A DNA stretch of 64,000 nucleotides from Escherichia phage N2. The notes below the pieces were generated by a model. That model did no database searches, was not told where the DNA came from, and saw nothing but the letters and a program-made list of their open reading frames with translations. The stretch's first letter is position 1. Each line of letters begins with the position of its first letter. A program made the translations under genes and the position numbers. Location: sequence record ON645936.1; one strand, written 5' to 3'. Below are positions 3,349 to 41,156 of this stretch, one piece after another.

Positions 3349-4364
3349 TGTGTTGCCTCTACATATAACTGATTTGCATATTGAATAAGTGCTTCGCGAT
3401 CAGAATCAGTGATGTCTGGAATTGCATTAATGTATTCTTCCATCAACGTCTGAAGAGATTGAACTTCAACTTCTTCGCTATCATCTGACTCGACAGAGTT
3501 ATCAATCTTTGACACAACTCGTAATGAATGCACAACTTTTTCTAGTTCAGATTCGAACTTCGTTAGATTTTTGTCTACCTCAGTTACTATAACACGCACT
3601 GATAGATTTGTAAAATCTTTATAGTCAATTTTTCCCTTAAATGGATACTGAATTCGACGATGCCAGGTAGTGTTGTTTGGAATAAATTCCATTCGTTCTG
3701 TTTCTGTATCAAACATCCAGAACCCACGAGAGTCATTCTCGTCACCTGCAGTTAGTGTCCATGGTGTCCCAATATATCTGACGTTAGCAGCCTCAGAGAT
3801 AGTATGGAAGTGACCAGACCACACCTCTTTATAAGTCTTAAGGAAATCAGGTTCAAGACCGTGAGATTTCATTCCTTTATAAAAATAAAATCCATTCAAC
3901 TCCCAGTGACCAACACAAAAAGAAGCAGATGAAGTTTTGATGTGTTCAAGAATTTCACCAGTATTTTCTTCGCACATCCAAGGAATTAAATCAATCAAAC
4001 ATCCGTCAAAATCTACTGTAGTAGGCTTATCATATACTTTAACATTAGGATATTTAGCCAAAAGCTCAGTAGAGGCATTTGGATGCATTACATTTTTATA
4101 GTGGAGATCGTGATTTCCTACAATAGTATGTAATGTGATTCCAACGTCATCAAGCATTTGAACTATTTCGCGAGCAAACTCCATAGTTTTATGCGTGATC
4201 GCTTTTCGCACATCAAAAATATCACCATATTGAATCCATACAGTAATTCCGTTTTTCTTAGAATATTCTATCGCTTGCTTAATTCCATCAATTTGAATAC
4301 CGCGAATCCACTCATCATCAGCTTTAACGCCTAAATGCCAATCACCTAAATTTAAAATTTTCAT
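3345..4364 (-). CDS. 47: recombination endonuclease subunit gp47 (Mre11/SbcD-like phosphoesterase)
   Basis: 339 aa; metallophosphatase motifs GDWHLG, GDIFD, GNHD; matches T4 gp47. Confidence 0.9.
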   Translation of the reverse strand: MKILNLGDWHLGVKADDEWIRGIQIDGIKQAIEYSKKNGITVWIQYGDIFDVRKAITHKTMEFAREIVQMLDDVGITLHTIVGNHDLHYKNVMHPNASTELLAKYPNVKVYDKPTTVDFDGCLIDLIPWMCEENTGEILEHIKTSSASFCVGHWELNGFYFYKGMKSHGLEPDFLKTYKEVWSGHFHTISEAANVRYIGTPWTLTAGDENDSRGFWMFDTETERMEFIPNNTTWHRRIQYPFKGKIDYKDFTNLSVRVIVTEVDKNLTKFESELEKVVHSLRVVSKIDNSVESDDSEEVEVQSLQTLMEEYINAIPDITDSDREALIQYANQLYVEATQ

Positions 4365-29650: not shown

Positions 29651-29680
29651 ATTATACCACAGTCAAGAGGAAAAGTAAAC
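29651..29680 (-). promoter_or_regulatory. T4-type early promoter (GTTTAC-N18-TATAAT) upstream of regB
   Basis: canonical hexamers with 18-nt spacer on minus strand. Confidence 0.55.
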
Positions 29681-30809: not shown

Positions 30810-31190
30810 TCAATTAGAAAATAAATTTATCCAAGATTGTTCTTTAATTAAAAATGGCTCAGAATCATATGCCATTAAACTTTGGGTGATTAGTCCTTTA
30901 AAAGGCCCATCAATAAATTCCATGGTAAAATATGGAATTTTATTCATTAACTTTGCATTAGGAGCAGTGCACAAAACTCTGCATCCTTTGAATACACCTT
31001 TTTGTAATTTGTATTGCTTAGGATAAAATTCGCTCAAGACGTTGTTATTTGCCAAAATTTCAAAATGATTCACCAATTTATTTTTAATAGTTTTTGGCGA
31101 AAAATAAAGATATTCGAAAAGTTGCGTATCTGTCATCATTGCATTCCAATTACGAAAAACTGCGGACGAGTAATACCACCAATGCAGCAT
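30810..31190 (-). CDS. hypothetical protein
   Basis: 126-aa ORF; start probably internal near 31139. Confidence 0.4.
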   Translation of the reverse strand: MLHWWYYSSAVFRNWNAMMTDTQLFEYLYFSPKTIKNKLVNHFEILANNNVLSEFYPKQYKLQKGVFKGCRVLCTAPNAKLMNKIPYFTMEFIDGPFKGLITQSLMAYDSEPFLIKEQSWINLFSN

Positions 31191-31726
31191 TTACTATTGC
31201 AGCAGTGTTGCACAGTTTCAATATGAATATCGTAAATTTTATCCATATCAGGAGATTTAACAGGCTCATCGATTATATACAAAATTCGAGAAAGCGATAA
31301 ACCTCTGAACTTGCTACCTCTATTACCAACAAAACTACGGACAGAATCAGTAAATAAACGGAATCGAATATCATCGCTAGAATAACGAGAAAATTCTTTT
31401 TTAATGCGGCCCGCAGAAATTTTAGCGTAAGCTGAAGTATTAGAAAGAACAATAACTGTTCCACCGTCATACAACCAATTAGCGGCAAAATTAGTTACTG
31501 CAGTTGATTTACCAGATTGTCTGCCACCATCTAAACGAAGTGTACAATATTCTTTAAATAAATGCGACGAATCAGGTACATAAAATCCACTATTACAAAT
31601 TTCTTCTACTCTAGCATCAGAATGGTGTGTAAAAGCATTCATCAGGGATAGATAAGGACCAGTTAAAAATGTTCTCATTTTATTCTCTCTAAATTTGGGC
31701 CATTCCATGGCGCATGAATTGTCCAT
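31136..31726 (-). CDS. small P-loop NTPase
   Basis: 196-aa ORF; Walker A GGRQSGKST, Walker B ILYIIDEP. Confidence 0.5.
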   Translation of the reverse strand: MDNSCAMEWPKFRENKMRTFLTGPYLSLMNAFTHHSDARVEEICNSGFYVPDSSHLFKEYCTLRLDGGRQSGKSTAVTNFAANWLYDGGTVIVLSNTSAYAKISAGRIKKEFSRYSSDDIRFRLFTDSVRSFVGNRGSKFRGLSLSRILYIIDEPVKSPDMDKIYDIHIETVQHCCNSKCCIGGITRPQFFVIGMQ

Positions 31727-31821
31727 TTCTGTATTTACCCATTACCGCACTTGGGCTCGACCTTATTACAGGTTGGCGGGAATCCCTCATAGAATCATGA
31801 GGTCCAGGTTGTTCCCATGTT

Positions 31822-31892
31822 ATTTGAATGTAAATATTTTTGCCTTAATACTTATACCAGTGTGGCTTCATTAAAATTTTTTCATCGAGTCA
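31822..31892 (-). pseudogene. denV remnant (start codon fused to a diverged copy of the last ~70 nt of denV)
   Basis: minus strand ATGACTCGATGAAAAAATTTTAATGAAGCCACACTGGTATAAG... aligns with the denV start plus the denV 3' end at 32263-32335; reads M-T-R-stop. Confidence 0.5.
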
Positions 31893-31918
31893 TTTTACCT
31901 CTCTAAGTAATTATGAAT

Positions 31919-31948
31919 ATACTATCACAATTTTAGGAGAAAGTAAAC
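31919..31948 (-). promoter_or_regulatory. T4-type early promoter (GTTTAC-N18-TAGTAT); near-identical copy of the denV promoter
   Basis: sequence at 31913-31948 is ~90% identical to 32701-32737. Confidence 0.5.
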
Positions 31949-31950
31949 TG

Positions 31951-32253
31951 TTATTTACCTTTAATTACTTTAGCTGCTTCGATAGCCGCTTGCTGAAGGT
32001 CATCCATAGACATACCGAATTTAGAAGCAAAGTTATCAATTTTCTTTTCGACAGCATTCAAAGGCTTGGCCTGTTTACCTTCATTAGCACCAGGAAGAGC
32101 GAGAATACGCTCTTTGTCAATATAAAGGCTTACAAGTTTCTTACGGTCTTTATCGGACAAATCGTGAAATGAATGGGCCTTTTTATTTATAGCGGCTTCT
32201 AATTTACCTGCACTCACTCGCGCTTCAGTAATAAATTCTTGATATGTTTTCAT
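31951..32253 (-). CDS. ipII: internal protein II (packaged head protein with capsid-targeting sequence)
   Basis: 100 aa; N-terminus MKTYQEFITEA is the T4 IP capsid-targeting sequence with an IxE prohead-protease site. Confidence 0.8.
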   Translation of the reverse strand: MKTYQEFITEARVSAGKLEAAINKKAHSFHDLSDKDRKKLVSLYIDKERILALPGANEGKQAKPLNAVEKKIDNFASKFGMSMDDLQQAAIEAAKVIKGK

Positions 32254-32262
32254 ATGTTTCCT

Positions 32263-32679
32263 TTAAATGTAAATATTTTTACCGTAGTATTTATACCAGT
32301 ATGGTTTCATTAAAATTTTTTCGTTGAGTCGCTGTTGACTCAATTTAATAGCTGATTTGCATGGATTATAATCATTTTTCCATTCTGTTGGAATATCGCT
32401 TATGTCAGGAACTTCAGTGTCTTTTATACTGAACCCGCGTTTTAAGCATTCCATTATAATGTCTGATTGACGCTTTCGCAAAAATTCTAACTTGTCGTAA
32501 AAGAACGTAACATGACCAGAACCTAAAATAAACTCGGAAGATATTTTAAAATCTTTAACCCGCTTGCCATTTGCCACGTGTTTACGAACTATACCAAAAA
32601 CACGTGGCAATTCACGGTATTCTGCAATTAAATGTTGATCAGCAAGTTCAGATACTAAAGTCAAATTAATACGAGTCAT
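32263..32679 (-). CDS. denV: endonuclease V (pyrimidine-dimer glycosylase)
   Basis: 138 aa; [17 protein letters not shown]...WYKYYGK recognised as T4 DenV. Confidence 0.95.
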
Positions 32680-32704
32680 TTTATCCCTCCAAGTAACTGT
32701 GAAT

Positions 32705-32734
32705 ATACTATCACAGTTCTAGGAGAAAGTAAAC
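32705..32734 (-). promoter_or_regulatory. T4-type early promoter upstream of denV
   Basis: GTTTAC-N18-TAGTAT on minus strand. Confidence 0.5.
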
Positions 32735-32738
32735 AACT

Positions 32739-33269
<531 letters not shown>

Positions 33270-33725
33270 TTAAAAGAGGCTGTTCATTATTCGGTAAAGT
33301 GAAGGACCCATCACATATTGCCACTGAGTACGAGGAATAAGAGCAAAAGCATCCATCTCTGGAATCATAACACCATCTTTATTTTCAAAATAAGACTCGC
33401 AATGGCAATTTCTAAACATCTCATGCTCTACTGGAATCGTATAATAAAATAACTGTAAGTCTTTATTACTAGAATATTTAAATACACCTAGGTCTTCTAG
33501 AAGGTCTGGATTATAATTGCTAAAACCAGTCTCTTCTAAACATTCTCTTCGTGCTGCATCTAGTGCGCTTAAATCAGAACTTTCTACACGACCCTTTGGA
33601 ATATCCCAGCGATGGGCCATCATTCCAGGCTTACGAGAACCGGTAACCCGACCCATAAATAAATCTTTATCTTCTGTCATAAAGATAATACCAGCTGATA
33701 ATGTTTTCATTTTAATTTCCTGCAT
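33270..33725 (-). CDS. nudE: Nudix hydrolase NudE
   Basis: 151 aa; Nudix box GRVESSDLSALDAARRECLEETGF. Confidence 0.85.
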   Translation of the reverse strand: MQEIKMKTLSAGIIFMTEDKDLFMGRVTGSRKPGMMAHRWDIPKGRVESSDLSALDAARRECLEETGFSNYNPDLLEDLGVFKYSSNKDLQLFYYTIPVEHEMFRNCHCESYFENKDGVMIPEMDAFALIPRTQWQYVMGPSLYRIMNSLF

Positions 33726-33898
33726 TCAGTAATAAAGTTATTTAAATTTTGAGTATATTTCTTTTCATCAAAAATCTTTTGTTGTCTGCGTAGCCGCCAT
33801 GGCATTTCAATGAACGTGTACCATATCCCAGATAATATTGCTGCTGTAAAAATATTAACAAGTATGGTTAAAAGAATCCAATCTCCTATTCTGTCCAT
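33707..33898 (-). CDS. hypothetical small membrane protein
   Basis: 63 aa with one hydrophobic helix. Confidence 0.4.
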   Translation of the reverse strand: MDRIGDWILLTILVNIFTAAILSGIWYTFIEMPWRLRRQQKIFDEKKYTQNLNNFITECRKLK

Positions 33899-40257: not shown

Positions 40258-40482
40258 TTATTCACCTTTAGAAATTTTATCCATAACAATAGCGATTAAA
40301 CCAATTAAAAATGCTACTACAAGTGAAAACACATTTTCTGCTGTAGTCAATAATCCGCATATAAATCCAACAAACATTGAAAAACTAAATGCAGAAGCAG
40401 AAATTGCAATAGCAACATTTCGAATTAATTCACAGCGTTTCATTTTTATTCTCCTCAGTAGTTGATAGGGTAATAATATCAC
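40258..40482 (-). CDS. hypothetical small membrane protein
   Basis: 74 aa with two hydrophobic segments; downstream of promoter 40473-40502. Confidence 0.45.
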   Translation of the reverse strand: MILLPYQLLRRIKMKRCELIRNVAIAISASAFSFSMFVGFICGLLTTAENVFSLVVAFLIGLIAIVMDKISKGE

Positions 40483-40502
40483 TACCCCATCTAAAAGTAA
40501 AC
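40473..40502 (-). promoter_or_regulatory. T4-type early promoter (GTTTAC-N18-TATTAT)
   Basis: minus-strand hexamers with 18-nt spacer. Confidence 0.5.
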
Positions 40503-40514
40503 TGTTTTTATAAA

Positions 40515-40823
40515 CTATTTTATTCCGCGTGATGCAATTGTATTCTGTCGTTTAGCACCAGTTTGTTTAAAGTCATGATTGTCGATTTGATCGGTACGAG
40601 CAACTCCGAATGATGATTTAATCTTAGCTTTAGATCCTTTAGTTATAGAAATAAACATCTCGGAAGCCCCTTTCTTAAAGTCCGAAGCAATTACTTCAAC
40701 ACCGTTCTTAGCAAGTGACTTCAGAATTGCCTCCGCGTACTCATCATCAAGACTCGCTTGAGTATTAATAACGAATGTCTTTGGCGCAGCCGCTTCATTG
40801 ATAAATTCTTTAAATGTTTTCAT
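40515..40823 (-). CDS. internal-protein-like packaged protein (IPI-type) with capsid-targeting sequence
   Basis: 102 aa; N-terminus MKTFKEFINEA (CTS with I-N-E cleavage motif); basic. Confidence 0.6.
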   Translation of the reverse strand: MKTFKEFINEAAAPKTFVINTQASLDDEYAEAILKSLAKNGVEVIASDFKKGASEMFISITKGSKAKIKSSFGVARTDQIDNHDFKQTGAKRQNTIASRGIK

Positions 40824-40853: not shown

Positions 40854-40883
40854 ATAGTACCACAACCCTATTTAAAAGTAAAC
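40854..40883 (-). promoter_or_regulatory. T4-type early promoter
   Basis: GTTTAC-N18-TACTAT on minus strand. Confidence 0.5.
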
Positions 40884-41156
40884 TCATTTTAAATAAATTG
40901 CGTATTTTTTATAACCCGCTGACTCATGACGAAGACCCTTATCATTAGCAAAACGCTCAATGTTGTTAATTTGATTCTGGTCAAGTTCAGAGATGTCAAA
41001 CACGAAAAAGTTACGTTTGTTACCAACTGTTACATAGTCAGTTAAATCAATATCATATAGGTAATTGATGTCAGCAATCAAAGTCTTGACAGCTTTGCTA
41101 ATTTTTACTTTTTCGTTAAAAGTAGCTTCATTGATAAATTCTTTAAATGTTTTCAT
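40884..41156 (-). CDS. second internal-protein-like packaged protein with capsid-targeting sequence
   Basis: ORF 40884-41168; start taken at MKTFKEFINEA to match the CTS. Confidence 0.55.
   Translation of the reverse strand: MKTFKEFINEATFNEKVKISKAVKTLIADINYLYDIDLTDYVTVGNKRNFFVFDISELDQNQINNIERFANDKGLRHESAGYKKYAIYLK

Follow-up and report, generated by a model that had tools for sequence, protein, structure and literature searches.

A denV remnant and a repeated promoter cassette at a probably mosaic internal-protein locus of Escherichia phage N2

The segment between e and vs.8 in Escherichia phage N2 is most likely a recombinational mosaic of the hypervariable ipII/ipIII locus, carrying a dead second copy of denV (probability about 0.8). 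It was studied within a window of 64,000 nucleotides (64 kb) from sequence record ON645936.1, the whole stretch of DNA that was analysed. The arrangement is a new one at a known hypervariable locus, and represents a real gene-shuffling scar, instructive but ordinary.

Gene order and direct repeats

On the minus strand, the order of elements is e, promoter, denV, ipII, promoter copy, denV remnant and vs.8, with the following features:

31136-31726, minus strand: vs.8 main ORF, 196 aa, downstream of the denV remnant
31689-31790, minus strand: 33-aa ORF corresponding to the N-terminal 32 residues of T4 Vs.8
31824-31893, minus strand: denV remnant (pseudogene), ATGACTCG joined to the 3'-terminal ~62 nt of denV
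31894-31950, minus strand: cassette copy P_rem, between the ipII stop codon and the remnant ATG
31951-32253, minus strand: ipII (internal protein II), 100 aa
32254-32262, minus strand: spacer AGGAAACAT, 9 nt, directly 3' of the denV stop codon
32263-32679, minus strand: intact denV (endonuclease V), 138 aa
32680-32738, minus strand: cassette P_denV, between e and denV
32739-33233, minus strand: e (T4 lysozyme), 164 aa, bounding the variable locus upstream

The initial annotation had proposed the order vs.x-remnant-ipII-denV-e and contrasted it with T4. The ORFs are in place, each element lying at the position given there or within a few bases of it, and the T4 order was verified as vs.8-denV-ipII-ipIII-e on NC_000866 and T4T. 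Alignment with T4 and other T-even phages confirmed that the remnant segment is homologous to the 3' end of denV and that the arrangement is not that of T4. The ipIII gene, also reported as missing, is absent across the 64-kb window, where only the shared N-terminal targeting motif was matched. All ORFs around the remnant are intact.

The intact denV is a full-length ORF, and its product shares 77% amino acid identity with T4 DenV (residues 1-137) and 96-98% with the annotated endonuclease V of phages HY01, SH-2 and Killian; the nucleotide identity is 95-96% to the denV genes of these three phages versus 75% to the T4 allele. The ipII product is 93% identical to T4 IPII over 100 aa. Its N-terminus, MKTYQEFITEA, contains the capsid-targeting motif MKTYQEFI by which T-even internal protein genes are recognized. 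At the nucleotide level, ipII is 99-99.7% identical in all related loci, Mosigvirus included, while vs.8 in Mosigvirus is 84-87% identical. The spacer AGGAAACAT is the ribosome-binding region of ipII, and HY01-type phages have this leader after denV as well. Downstream of the remnant, the vs.8 main ORF shares 82-86% amino acid identity with T4 Vs.8 and is separated from the 33-aa ORF by an 8-nt indel in the alignment with that protein. The stretch 31727-31821 is 97-100% conserved across phages because it encodes N-terminal Vs.8 residues. These 95 conserved nt, which separate the remnant from vs.8, were considered as an RNA element, a reading that was rejected since they code for the N-terminal 32 residues of T4 Vs.8.

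A self-repeat search of the window yielded two pairs of direct repeats. The first, D1 (31823-31891 vs 32262-32330), spans 69 nt with 87% identity and pairs the remnant with the 3' end of the intact denV. The second, D2 (31886-31948 vs 32672-32734), spans 63 nt with 89% identity and corresponds to the promoter block, for which a duplication with ~90% identity had been noted. The BLAST E-values of 1e-18 (D1) and 1e-14 (D2) are far beyond chance, and ipII is bracketed by both pairs, as had been described. The fusion of a denV 3'-end copy to the denV start, leaving a 3-codon ORF, was likewise borne out: positions 31882-31893 read ATG ACT CGA TGA, followed by ~62 nt of denV 3'-end homology. This segment is 95.7-97.1% identical to the denV 3' ends of Killian, VIPECOOM01 and CM8, and a tblastn search with residues 118-137 of T4 DenV matched it with 70% identity over 20 aa (E=6e-5). 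The remnant lacks 347 nt and its reading frame is shifted, so it contains no full-length ORF of ~138 aa with the catalytic N-terminal region. As read from this sequence, 31824-31893 is a pseudogene remnant and not a gene. In other records it is mostly unannotated or mis-called as small hypothetical ORFs, and spotting it avoids spurious gene calls in annotation.

The promoter/stem-loop cassettes

[quoted passage not shown] Their predicted promoter boxes are:

31943-31948, minus strand: -35 box of P_rem, GTTTAC
31919-31924, minus strand: -10 box of P_rem, TAGTAT
32729-32734, minus strand: -35 box of P_denV, GTTTAC
32705-32710, minus strand: -10 box of P_denV, TAGTAT

P_rem shares 89% identity with P_denV and 96.5% with the stretch between ipII and denV in VIPECOOM01. 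In each, GTTTAC and TAGTAT are separated by 18 nt, matching the pattern of T4 early-promoter geometry, of which the window contains 23 instances versus 3.6 expected, 19 of the 23 being on the minus strand. A generic sigma-70 promoter/terminator scan flagged neither cassette and detected no terminator in the locus. Homology to the whole cassette is limited to these two copies in the window, only the -35 word being common elsewhere. The same architecture, in non-homologous form, was seen at 29680, 36782 and 40502.

RNA folding of P_denV gave -26.4 kcal/mol (z -5.4), in a hairpin whose loop contains the -10 box and whose 3' arm contains the Shine-Dalgarno GGAG. P_rem folds at -14.6 kcal/mol (z -2.2), as compared with -20.7 kcal/mol for the cassette in an intact-gene context. 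Across the aligned sequences, 87.5% of cells were paired (slid controls: ~50%) and 3 pairs were compensatory; covariation gives modest support, and one of these sequences had itself supplied the structure that was tested. In layout, the repeated "promoter", denV's own cassette, is a predicted PeSL-like early-promoter/stem-loop element, of a kind already described at T-even internal-protein loci, where shuffling between such elements has also been reported (PMC2839356, PMC4122927). Like PeSLs (Arbiol et al. 2010, PMC2839356; Comeau et al. 2014, PMC4122927), the window cassettes combine -35 and -10 boxes with a stem-loop that overlaps the latter, a Shine-Dalgarno sequence and an ATG, and are repeated around variable ORFs, where such repeats can mediate deletion, insertion and replacement. 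Arbiol et al. regarded the elements associated with T-even internal-protein genes as analogs, not homologs, of the PeSLs of phages RB49 and phi1, based on T4 early promoters and with AT-rich stems (PMC2839356). Unlike in PeSLs, the window stem also encloses the Shine-Dalgarno sequence.

From the predicted fold we infer that read-through transcripts would mask the putative ribosome-binding site, while transcripts starting inside the hairpin would expose it. A comparable arrangement is reportedly found at T4 gene e, whose ribosome-binding site is said to be masked by a hairpin with an internal promoter (attributed to McPheeters et al. 1986). In both, a stable hairpin holds the Shine-Dalgarno sequence in its 3' arm and contains a promoter -10 box, and the ribosome-binding site would be exposed only on transcripts that begin within the hairpin. 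They differ in promoter class, as the internal promoter of gene e is late and the window cassette has the predicted geometry of an early promoter.

With its -35 and -10 boxes intact, P_rem probably still drives vs.8 and the downstream genes. A stronger version of this, partly compatible with the mosaic origin, holds that the whole remnant region is kept for function, the cassette driving vs.8-regB and the mini-ORF with its 62-nt tail serving as a leader. The -35 and -10 hexamers do not vary in any remnant copy, unlike the hairpin arms and the Shine-Dalgarno region; T4-type phages have the same promoter ahead of denV-vs.8, and the remnant has diverged no more than its flanks. Against these observations, the weakened P_rem hairpin in the window (-14.6 vs -20.7 kcal/mol) suggests relaxed constraint, the high identity may reflect recent spread only, and phage JS09 keeps a different remnant, indicating that no particular remnant sequence is required. 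Retention for function is thus possible, but on the doubtful side.

Deletion of a vs.8-adjacent denV allele

The remnant has precisely the structure expected if 347 nt were lost between GACTCG motifs at denV nt 3-8 and 350-355. The same short repeat lies at both endpoints and a single copy is kept, at 31886-31891, which marks the deletion junction, consistent with a microhomology-mediated event; only 0.3% of random deletions in denV show microhomology of at least 6 nt. GACTCG is present at nt 3 and 350 in 6 of the 7 intact denV alleles examined, while in the window's own intact denV the second site reads GACTCA. Deletion products predicted from vs.8-adjacent alleles match the remnant at 68/70 (CM8) and 67/70 (VIPECOOM01) positions, whereas the window's own intact denV would give a product matching at only 61/70. 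The remnant together with its promoter copy is 96-98% identical to vs.8-adjacent alleles elsewhere, versus only 87% to the window's own copies. By these alignments, the parent of the remnant was a vs.8-adjacent allele and not the adjoining intact copy.

In phage JS09, the vs.8-proximal denV copy was truncated in a separate event, with GGCAAA repeats at nt 105 and 397 as endpoints; it matches the predicted GGCAAA deletion product at 114-116 of 125 positions. The spare denV has been removed at 6-nt repeats at least twice independently. The JS09 annotation of the truncated denV and of ip10 cites 1994 entries for phage 'Pol'.

Deletions and amplifications at 6-10 bp microhomologies are known from T4 (PMC9391042). 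As in evolved T4 (Srikant, Guegler & Laub 2022, PMC9391042), the endpoints in the window lie at short direct repeats of which one copy is retained, the repeat size being 6 nt here versus 6-10 bp there, and dispensable accessory genes are lost in both. Unlike in evolved T4, the window deletion is natural and of sufficient age to be common to at least 13 phages, and removed a redundant copy, not a unique accessory gene.

Assembly and proposed spread of the locus

Nearly every 80-nt tile of the block that spans the remnant and ipII is identical to phage SP1 (80/80 positions), the flanks of this block find their best matches in phages other than SP1, and the e-promoter-denV part matches HY01/SH-2-type phages. 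The intact denV of SP1 is a different allele, with 73% nucleotide identity. The fit of the remnant to vs.8-adjacent alleles, together with the SP1 tiles, therefore indicates that inter-phage recombination, and not duplication in this genome, brought the repeats together.

A junction-specific query recovered the identical deletion junction in 14 database records, representing 13 phages of Tequatrovirus and Mosigvirus, and two further phages, TH58 and SF, span the remnant in one piece. The rearrangement is therefore not private to this genome. In every remnant-bearing locus fetched (13 plus the window), a second denV lies upstream of ipII, full-length except in ECCR664; the ECCR664 record is poorly assembled. 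In the other 13 remnant phages, what lies upstream of ipII is not the 3' end of denV; other internal-protein genes or another promoter take that place. Among 713 denV-bearing records, denV at two places is rare (5 records) and no phage with two intact denV genes was identified, the extra place in one of them being the truncated JS09 copy; because no such genome was identified, the intermediate with two intact copies is one that we infer. The window's arrangement (31100-33800) found no match in one piece among the best 40 phage records, nor did the direct join of intact denV to ipII (32130-32420) find a full single-piece match in 50,697 phage records. Exact-pattern scans of IMG/VR found neither the denV-ipII junction nor the remnant junction, which makes that collection uninformative.

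A mosaic origin would have proceeded as follows. The deleted denV parent adjoined vs.8, downstream of ipII and of its own promoter cassette, as in T4-type phages. An ancestor may have gained both e-proximal and vs.8-proximal promoter-denV units by homologous recombination between co-infecting phages, and one redundant denV copy would then have been lost by microhomology-mediated deletion. The resulting block (ipII, promoter, dead denV and the vs.8 5' region) could have spread by ordinary homologous recombination, with putative crossover sites in the ~32-nt capsid-targeting-sequence codons and leader on one side and in the conserved vs.8 5' region on the other. In the window, the block would have been joined to an HY01-like e-promoter-denV unit, creating the direct denV-ipII junction and placing ipII between direct repeats.

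PeSL mini-circles have been demonstrated in RB49 and phi1 (PMC2839356), and provide a precedent for a different route. The ipII-cassette-dead denV block could be a self-contained shuffling cassette, whose denV-derived arms, the 69-nt 3' end and the 63-nt promoter/start, would serve as portable homology for mini-circle loop-out and re-insertion beside any denV. If so, this would explain the 96-100% identity of the block across Tequatrovirus and Mosigvirus, and in the window a simple e-denV-vs.8 locus would have received a fresh Campbell-type insertion; we consider such a cassette unlikely. The specific proposal is that a mini-circle (denV 3' arm, ipII, promoter cassette and ATGACTCG) excised via the 69-nt repeats re-inserts Campbell-style at any denV 3' end, making the 'remnant' a duplicated homology arm of the inserted cassette and not a gene decayed in place. 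The structure of the window is indeed the exact product of an insertion into a CM8-type locus (e-promoter-denV-vs.8), and D1 x D1 recombination would regenerate the CM8 type. The other 13 phages, however, lack the denV 3' end upstream of ipII and so are not Campbell products, double crossover in the conserved flanks accounts for all cases, and an earlier deletion or illegitimate event would still be needed for the GACTCG junction, which makes excision and re-insertion quite unlikely.

The initial annotation had instead favoured duplication of a promoter-denV unit followed by internal deletion of one copy. The succession of two promoter-denV units and a deletion remains the best account of the remnant, while the descent of the two copies as local sisters does not (61/70 vs 68/70). 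The bracketing of ipII by two repeat pairs, and the former presence of two denV units in some genome, would suit a tandem duplication within the phage's own lineage and internal deletion of one sister copy. Such an origin is improbable given the better fit of the remnant to other phages' vs.8-adjacent alleles, the missing second GACTCG in the adjoining denV, the SP1 match of the remnant-ipII block alongside a different SP1 denV allele, and the sharing of the junction by two genera. An assembly or sequencing artefact at the chimeric junction, for which nothing specific speaks beyond the capacity of repeats to mislead assemblers, is hardly credible given the identical junction in 14 independently sequenced records and the intact adjoining ORFs.

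The hypervariable internal-protein locus of T-even phages was described in 1994 (Repoila, Tetart, Bouet & Krisch, EMBO J 13:4181, as cited in PMC2839356 and PMC4122927). As at those loci, the variable region in the window lies between e and vs.8/denV and differs in the number, order and identity of internal-protein genes; all internal-protein genes share conserved N-terminal targeting-sequence codons, and early-promoter/stem-loop elements flank the ORFs. It departs from known T-even loci in that its order, e-promoter-denV-ipII (9-nt spacer)-promoter-dead denV-vs.8, matched no record in one piece. A search of the denV/ipII/ipIII literature, with Repoila 1994 itself outside its scope, found no explicit description of the remnant, and the locus is not treated in Petrov et al. 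2010. The locus occurs in at least eight arrangements. The T4 order given in the initial annotation agrees with the verified one; as a reference it is not the standard arrangement but one derived state among many. T4 itself retains a vestige, 19 nt of the denV 3' end, upstream of ipII. On a weaker reading, the T4 order may have arisen by reciprocal loss from the same two-denV ancestor, and the window would keep the ancestral denV-ipII junction.

The locus offers an unusually clean, base-resolved record of T-even gene reshuffling, in which recombination at short conserved cassettes would join modules, create transient redundancy and be followed by loss of the spare copy. Current understanding is unchanged because the locus and the class of mechanism were already known.

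Internal proteins enter the host together with the injected DNA. Some of them neutralise host defences, IPI inhibiting GmrSD, and IPIII is required for T4 infection of E. coli ECOR17 (PMC9391042); because of such neutralisation, the set of ip genes bears on host range. In this phage, ipII is kept and ipIII is missing.

Layout of the e–vs.8 locus and loss of a second denV

The minus strand carries every gene between the lysozyme gene e and vs.8 in the window. In coding order, the features are:

32739-33233 (-): e (lysozyme)
32680-32738 (-): 59-nt intergenic block between e and denV
32263-32679 (-): denV (endonuclease V), intact
32254-32262 (-): 9-nt spacer between denV and ipII
31951-32253 (-): ipII (internal-protein gene)
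31894-31950 (-): 57-nt intergenic block between ipII and the remnant
31824-31893 (-): denV remnant, ATG ACT CGA TGA and then ~62 nt
31689-31790 and 31136-31726 (-): vs.8, two-part ORF

The initial annotation had described ipII bracketed by direct repeats, namely a denV 3'-end remnant and a duplicated promoter block, with no ipIII-like ORF and an order unlike that of T4; this was confirmed in every particular. The remnant repeats the end of the intact denV (31823-31891 and 32262-32330, 69 nt, 87%; BLAST E=1e-18) and is detected with T4 DenV protein as query (E=6e-5), while the promoter blocks form a second direct pair (31886-31948 and 32672-32734, 63 nt, 89%; BLAST E=1e-14). A protein-level search revealed no ipIII anywhere in the 64-kb window, and the T4 order, vs.8-denV-ipII-ipIII-e, was checked on two T4 records. 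T4 requires ipIII for infection of E. coli ECOR17 (PMC9391042), so phage N2 is predicted to differ in host range.

The remnant region was aligned with phages VIPECOOM01, Killian and CM8, in which denV is intact and adjoins vs.8. The ipII stop codon, the promoter block and everything up to ATGACTCG are collinear with all three, as is the stretch from GACTCGATGAAAAAATT to vs.8. The intact vs.8-adjacent denV of these phages contains GACTCG twice (nt 3-8 and 350-355), and a 347-nt deletion between the repeats, keeping one, predicts a 70-nt product that the remnant matches at 67-68 positions; a random deletion within denV would show microhomology of at least 6 nt in only 0.3% of cases. Phage JS09 carries another truncation of the vs.8-proximal denV, retaining its first ~104 nt and, beyond a junction at GGCAAA repeats (nt 105 and 397), its last ~21 nt; the predicted product matches at 114-116/125. 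On at least two independent occasions, then, deletion at short direct repeats has inactivated the vs.8-proximal denV, a process documented experimentally in T4 (PMC9391042). In Killian, the denV stop codon TAA is changed to CAA, and the annotated DenV (183 aa) extends into the vs.8 5' region; the same CAA in the remnant hints at a Killian-like parental allele.

Two further sequence features were observed. The first 32 residues of T4 Vs.8 (219 aa) correspond to a separate 33-aa ORF in the window (31689-31790, minus strand), and the remaining 196 aa, displaced by an 8-nt indel near 31700, are read in a different frame from their own ATG; the split is shared by Killian, VIPECOOM01, SP1, HX01 and ZQ3, whereas vs.8 is fused in the T4 record T4T and in JS09. 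The denV coding sequence contains a perfect inverted repeat of 13 nt, TTGCCACGTGTTT / AAACACGTGGCAA (32571-32583 / 32598-32610).

Distribution and ancestry of the two denV copies

A 60-nt query centred on the remnant junction matched 14 records, representing 13 phages: SP1, W143, SH-2 and BYEP01 (Tequatrovirus); HX01, PHB12, ZQ3, RPN187, AV112, AV113 and AV117 (Mosigvirus); and NHEP29 and ECCR664. In TH58 and SF, a single aligned piece covers the remnant too. The remnant thus occurs in ~2% of roughly 700-860 related records. A second denV lies upstream of ipII in 13/13 fetched remnant loci, as in the window, and is full-length in all but ECCR664, where it is apparently frameshifted. In that 134-kb record many genes are unannotated and vs.8 also looks frameshifted, so assembly quality, not biology, is probably responsible. 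Any second denV match was present in only 5 of 713 denV-bearing records, and no genome with two intact copies was found among the 713. These figures are consistent with redundancy in which one denV copy is rapidly lost and the other is maintained by selection.

The two copies differ in their closest relatives. The 3' piece of the remnant is 96-97% identical to vs.8-adjacent denV alleles elsewhere, compared with 87% to the window's intact denV, 440 nt away. Likewise, the promoter copy ahead of the remnant shares 96.5% identity with the VIPECOOM01 ipII-denV intergenic region and only 87-89% with the block upstream of the intact denV. The intact denV has GACTCA at the second site, and predicts the remnant at only 61/70 positions. 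Tiling of 31780-32250 (remnant, promoter copy and ipII) against SP1 gave 80/80 in nearly every 80-nt tile, and the intact denV of SP1 itself is a different, T4-like allele. The best tile matches for the e-promoter-denV part are HY01, SH-2 and VIPECOOM01; for part of vs.8, the only matches are SH-2, VIPECOOM01 and Killian. All the compared phages share ipII at 99-99.7% identity, among them Mosigvirus members with vs.8 only 84-87% identical. Because of these allele identities, tile matches and ipII conservation, the locus appears to be a mosaic built through recombination between phages, not by duplication inside this genome. The initial annotation had proposed duplication of a promoter-denV unit followed by internal deletion; loss of one of two such units as the source of the remnant stands, while a local, private duplication does not, the copies not being sisters and the junction recurring in at least 13 other phages.

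Recombination between the 69-nt repeats would remove ipII and regenerate a CM8-type locus, and between the 63-nt repeats would remove denV and ipII; either could release a small circle. Small circles of PeSLs (promoter-early stem-loops) have been shown in RB49 and phi1 (PMC2839356). It is nevertheless improbable that the remnant represents a homology arm brought in with such a circle: this reading fits the window but not the other 13 phages, where ipII lacks a preceding denV end.

Gene orders and the denV-ipII junction

The order of T4, with which the initial annotation compared the window, is not the standard but one of at least eight between e and vs.8 among 20 fetched loci.

Table. Gene orders from e to vs.8
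T4 type: ipIII, ipII, denV
Killian type: ipII, denV
CM8 type: denV only
HY01 type: denV, ipX
T2 type: ipIV only, denV absent
SH-2 / BYEP01 type: denV, orf105, ipII, remnant
SP1 / W143 and Mosigvirus group: ip93, denV, further ip genes, ipII, remnant
Window type: denV, ipII, remnant

T2 is classically more UV-sensitive than T4, consistent with its lack of denV at this locus, where ipIV stands alone.

The denV stop codon of HY01-type phages precedes a 9-nt leader and ~32 nt of targeting-sequence codons, the same as those with which ipII begins, and in SP1-type phages ipII is preceded by the same leader and a 13-nt vestige of the denV end. An HY01-like e-promoter-denV unit and an SP1-like ipII-promoter-remnant block would be joined, giving exactly the window's structure, by one crossover inside this shared ~55-nt stretch and another in the conserved vs.8 5' region. 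No single-piece match for intact denV joined directly to the ipII body was found among 515 matching records, and an exact-pattern scan of IMG/VR matched neither this junction nor that of the remnant, which makes this collection uninformative on the point.

In T4, the ipII leader is immediately preceded by 19 nt, AAAAATATTTACATTTAA (KNIYI*), that exactly match the 3' end of the window-type denV. The C-termini of T4 DenV (GKAIYA*) and Mosigvirus DenV (GKSIY*) are homologous to KNIYI*, showing that this piece is native to denV. On this sequence evidence, ipII would once have been directly downstream of a window-type denV, the T4 order itself being derived. The window's junction may be either this ancestral junction preserved or one re-created.

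Arbiol et al. 2010 (PMC2839356) and Comeau et al. 2014 (PMC4122927) attribute to Repoila et al. 1994 the description of two highly variable internal-protein loci in T-even phages, report PeSL-like elements there (T4 early promoters with AT-rich stem-loops), and relate a proposal that their shuffling alters host range. The JS09 annotation of truncated DenV and Ip10 cites 1994 GenBank entries from phage 'Pol'. The hypervariable locus and the class of mechanism are already known; the window's arrangement, with its well-resolved deletion scar, is new. Two more internal-protein-like ORFs with the motif MKTFKEFINEA (40515-40823 and 40884-41156, minus strand; 102 and 90 aa), preceded by GTTTAC...TGGTAnnAT promoter-like cassettes (40473-40502 and 40854-40883), presumably represent the second such locus, the ipI region.

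The promoter/stem-loop cassette

Both copies of the cassette, upstream of the intact denV and of the remnant, contain GTTTAC, 18 nt and TAGTAT, preceded by TG. The window has 23 instances of the geometry GTTTAC-N16-19-TAnnnT versus 3.6 expected, 19 of them on the minus strand, and a generic sigma-70 scan flagged neither copy. Judged by the T4 early-promoter consensus and PMC2839356, the geometry is consistent with T4 early promoters. An element homologous to the cassette precedes denV in every genomic context examined, and promoter and denV thus behave as one unit.

The cassette upstream of the intact denV is predicted to form a hairpin (-26.4 kcal/mol, z -5.4) whose loop holds the -10 box and whose 3' arm holds the Shine-Dalgarno GGAG; RNA folding of the T4 allele gave the same architecture from a different stem sequence. 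Across 18 distinct alleles, pairing was retained in 87.5% of cells versus ~50% in slid controls, with 3 compensatory pairs, a modest covariation support since the structure came from one member of the alignment. Such folding may mask the ribosome-binding site in read-through transcripts and expose it in those begun inside the hairpin, resembling the control of T4 gene e. In the copy upstream of the remnant, the -35 and -10 boxes are preserved but the hairpin is weaker, at -14.6 kcal/mol versus -20.7 in VIPECOOM01, which would fit a promoter still useful for vs.8 and a translational mask no longer needed.

Hairpins around the -10 box and/or Shine-Dalgarno, as in the denV cassette, also occur at geometry sites 29680, 36782 and 40502. 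Beside its 19-nt denV end, T4 has a promoter cassette that is a perfect palindrome, CCTAGAATTGTGA / TCACAATTCTAGG, between ipIII and ipII (T4T 3427-3497; same region of NC_000866). In phages that lack denV directly after e (T4, T2, Killian and VIPECOOM01), e still precedes the initial 43-49 nt of the denV cassette, succeeded by the shared leader ACTAATTAAAATATTTAAAGGAAACAyATG and whichever ip gene is present; the leader is similar to a denV end from which 6 nt, ACATTT, have been deleted.
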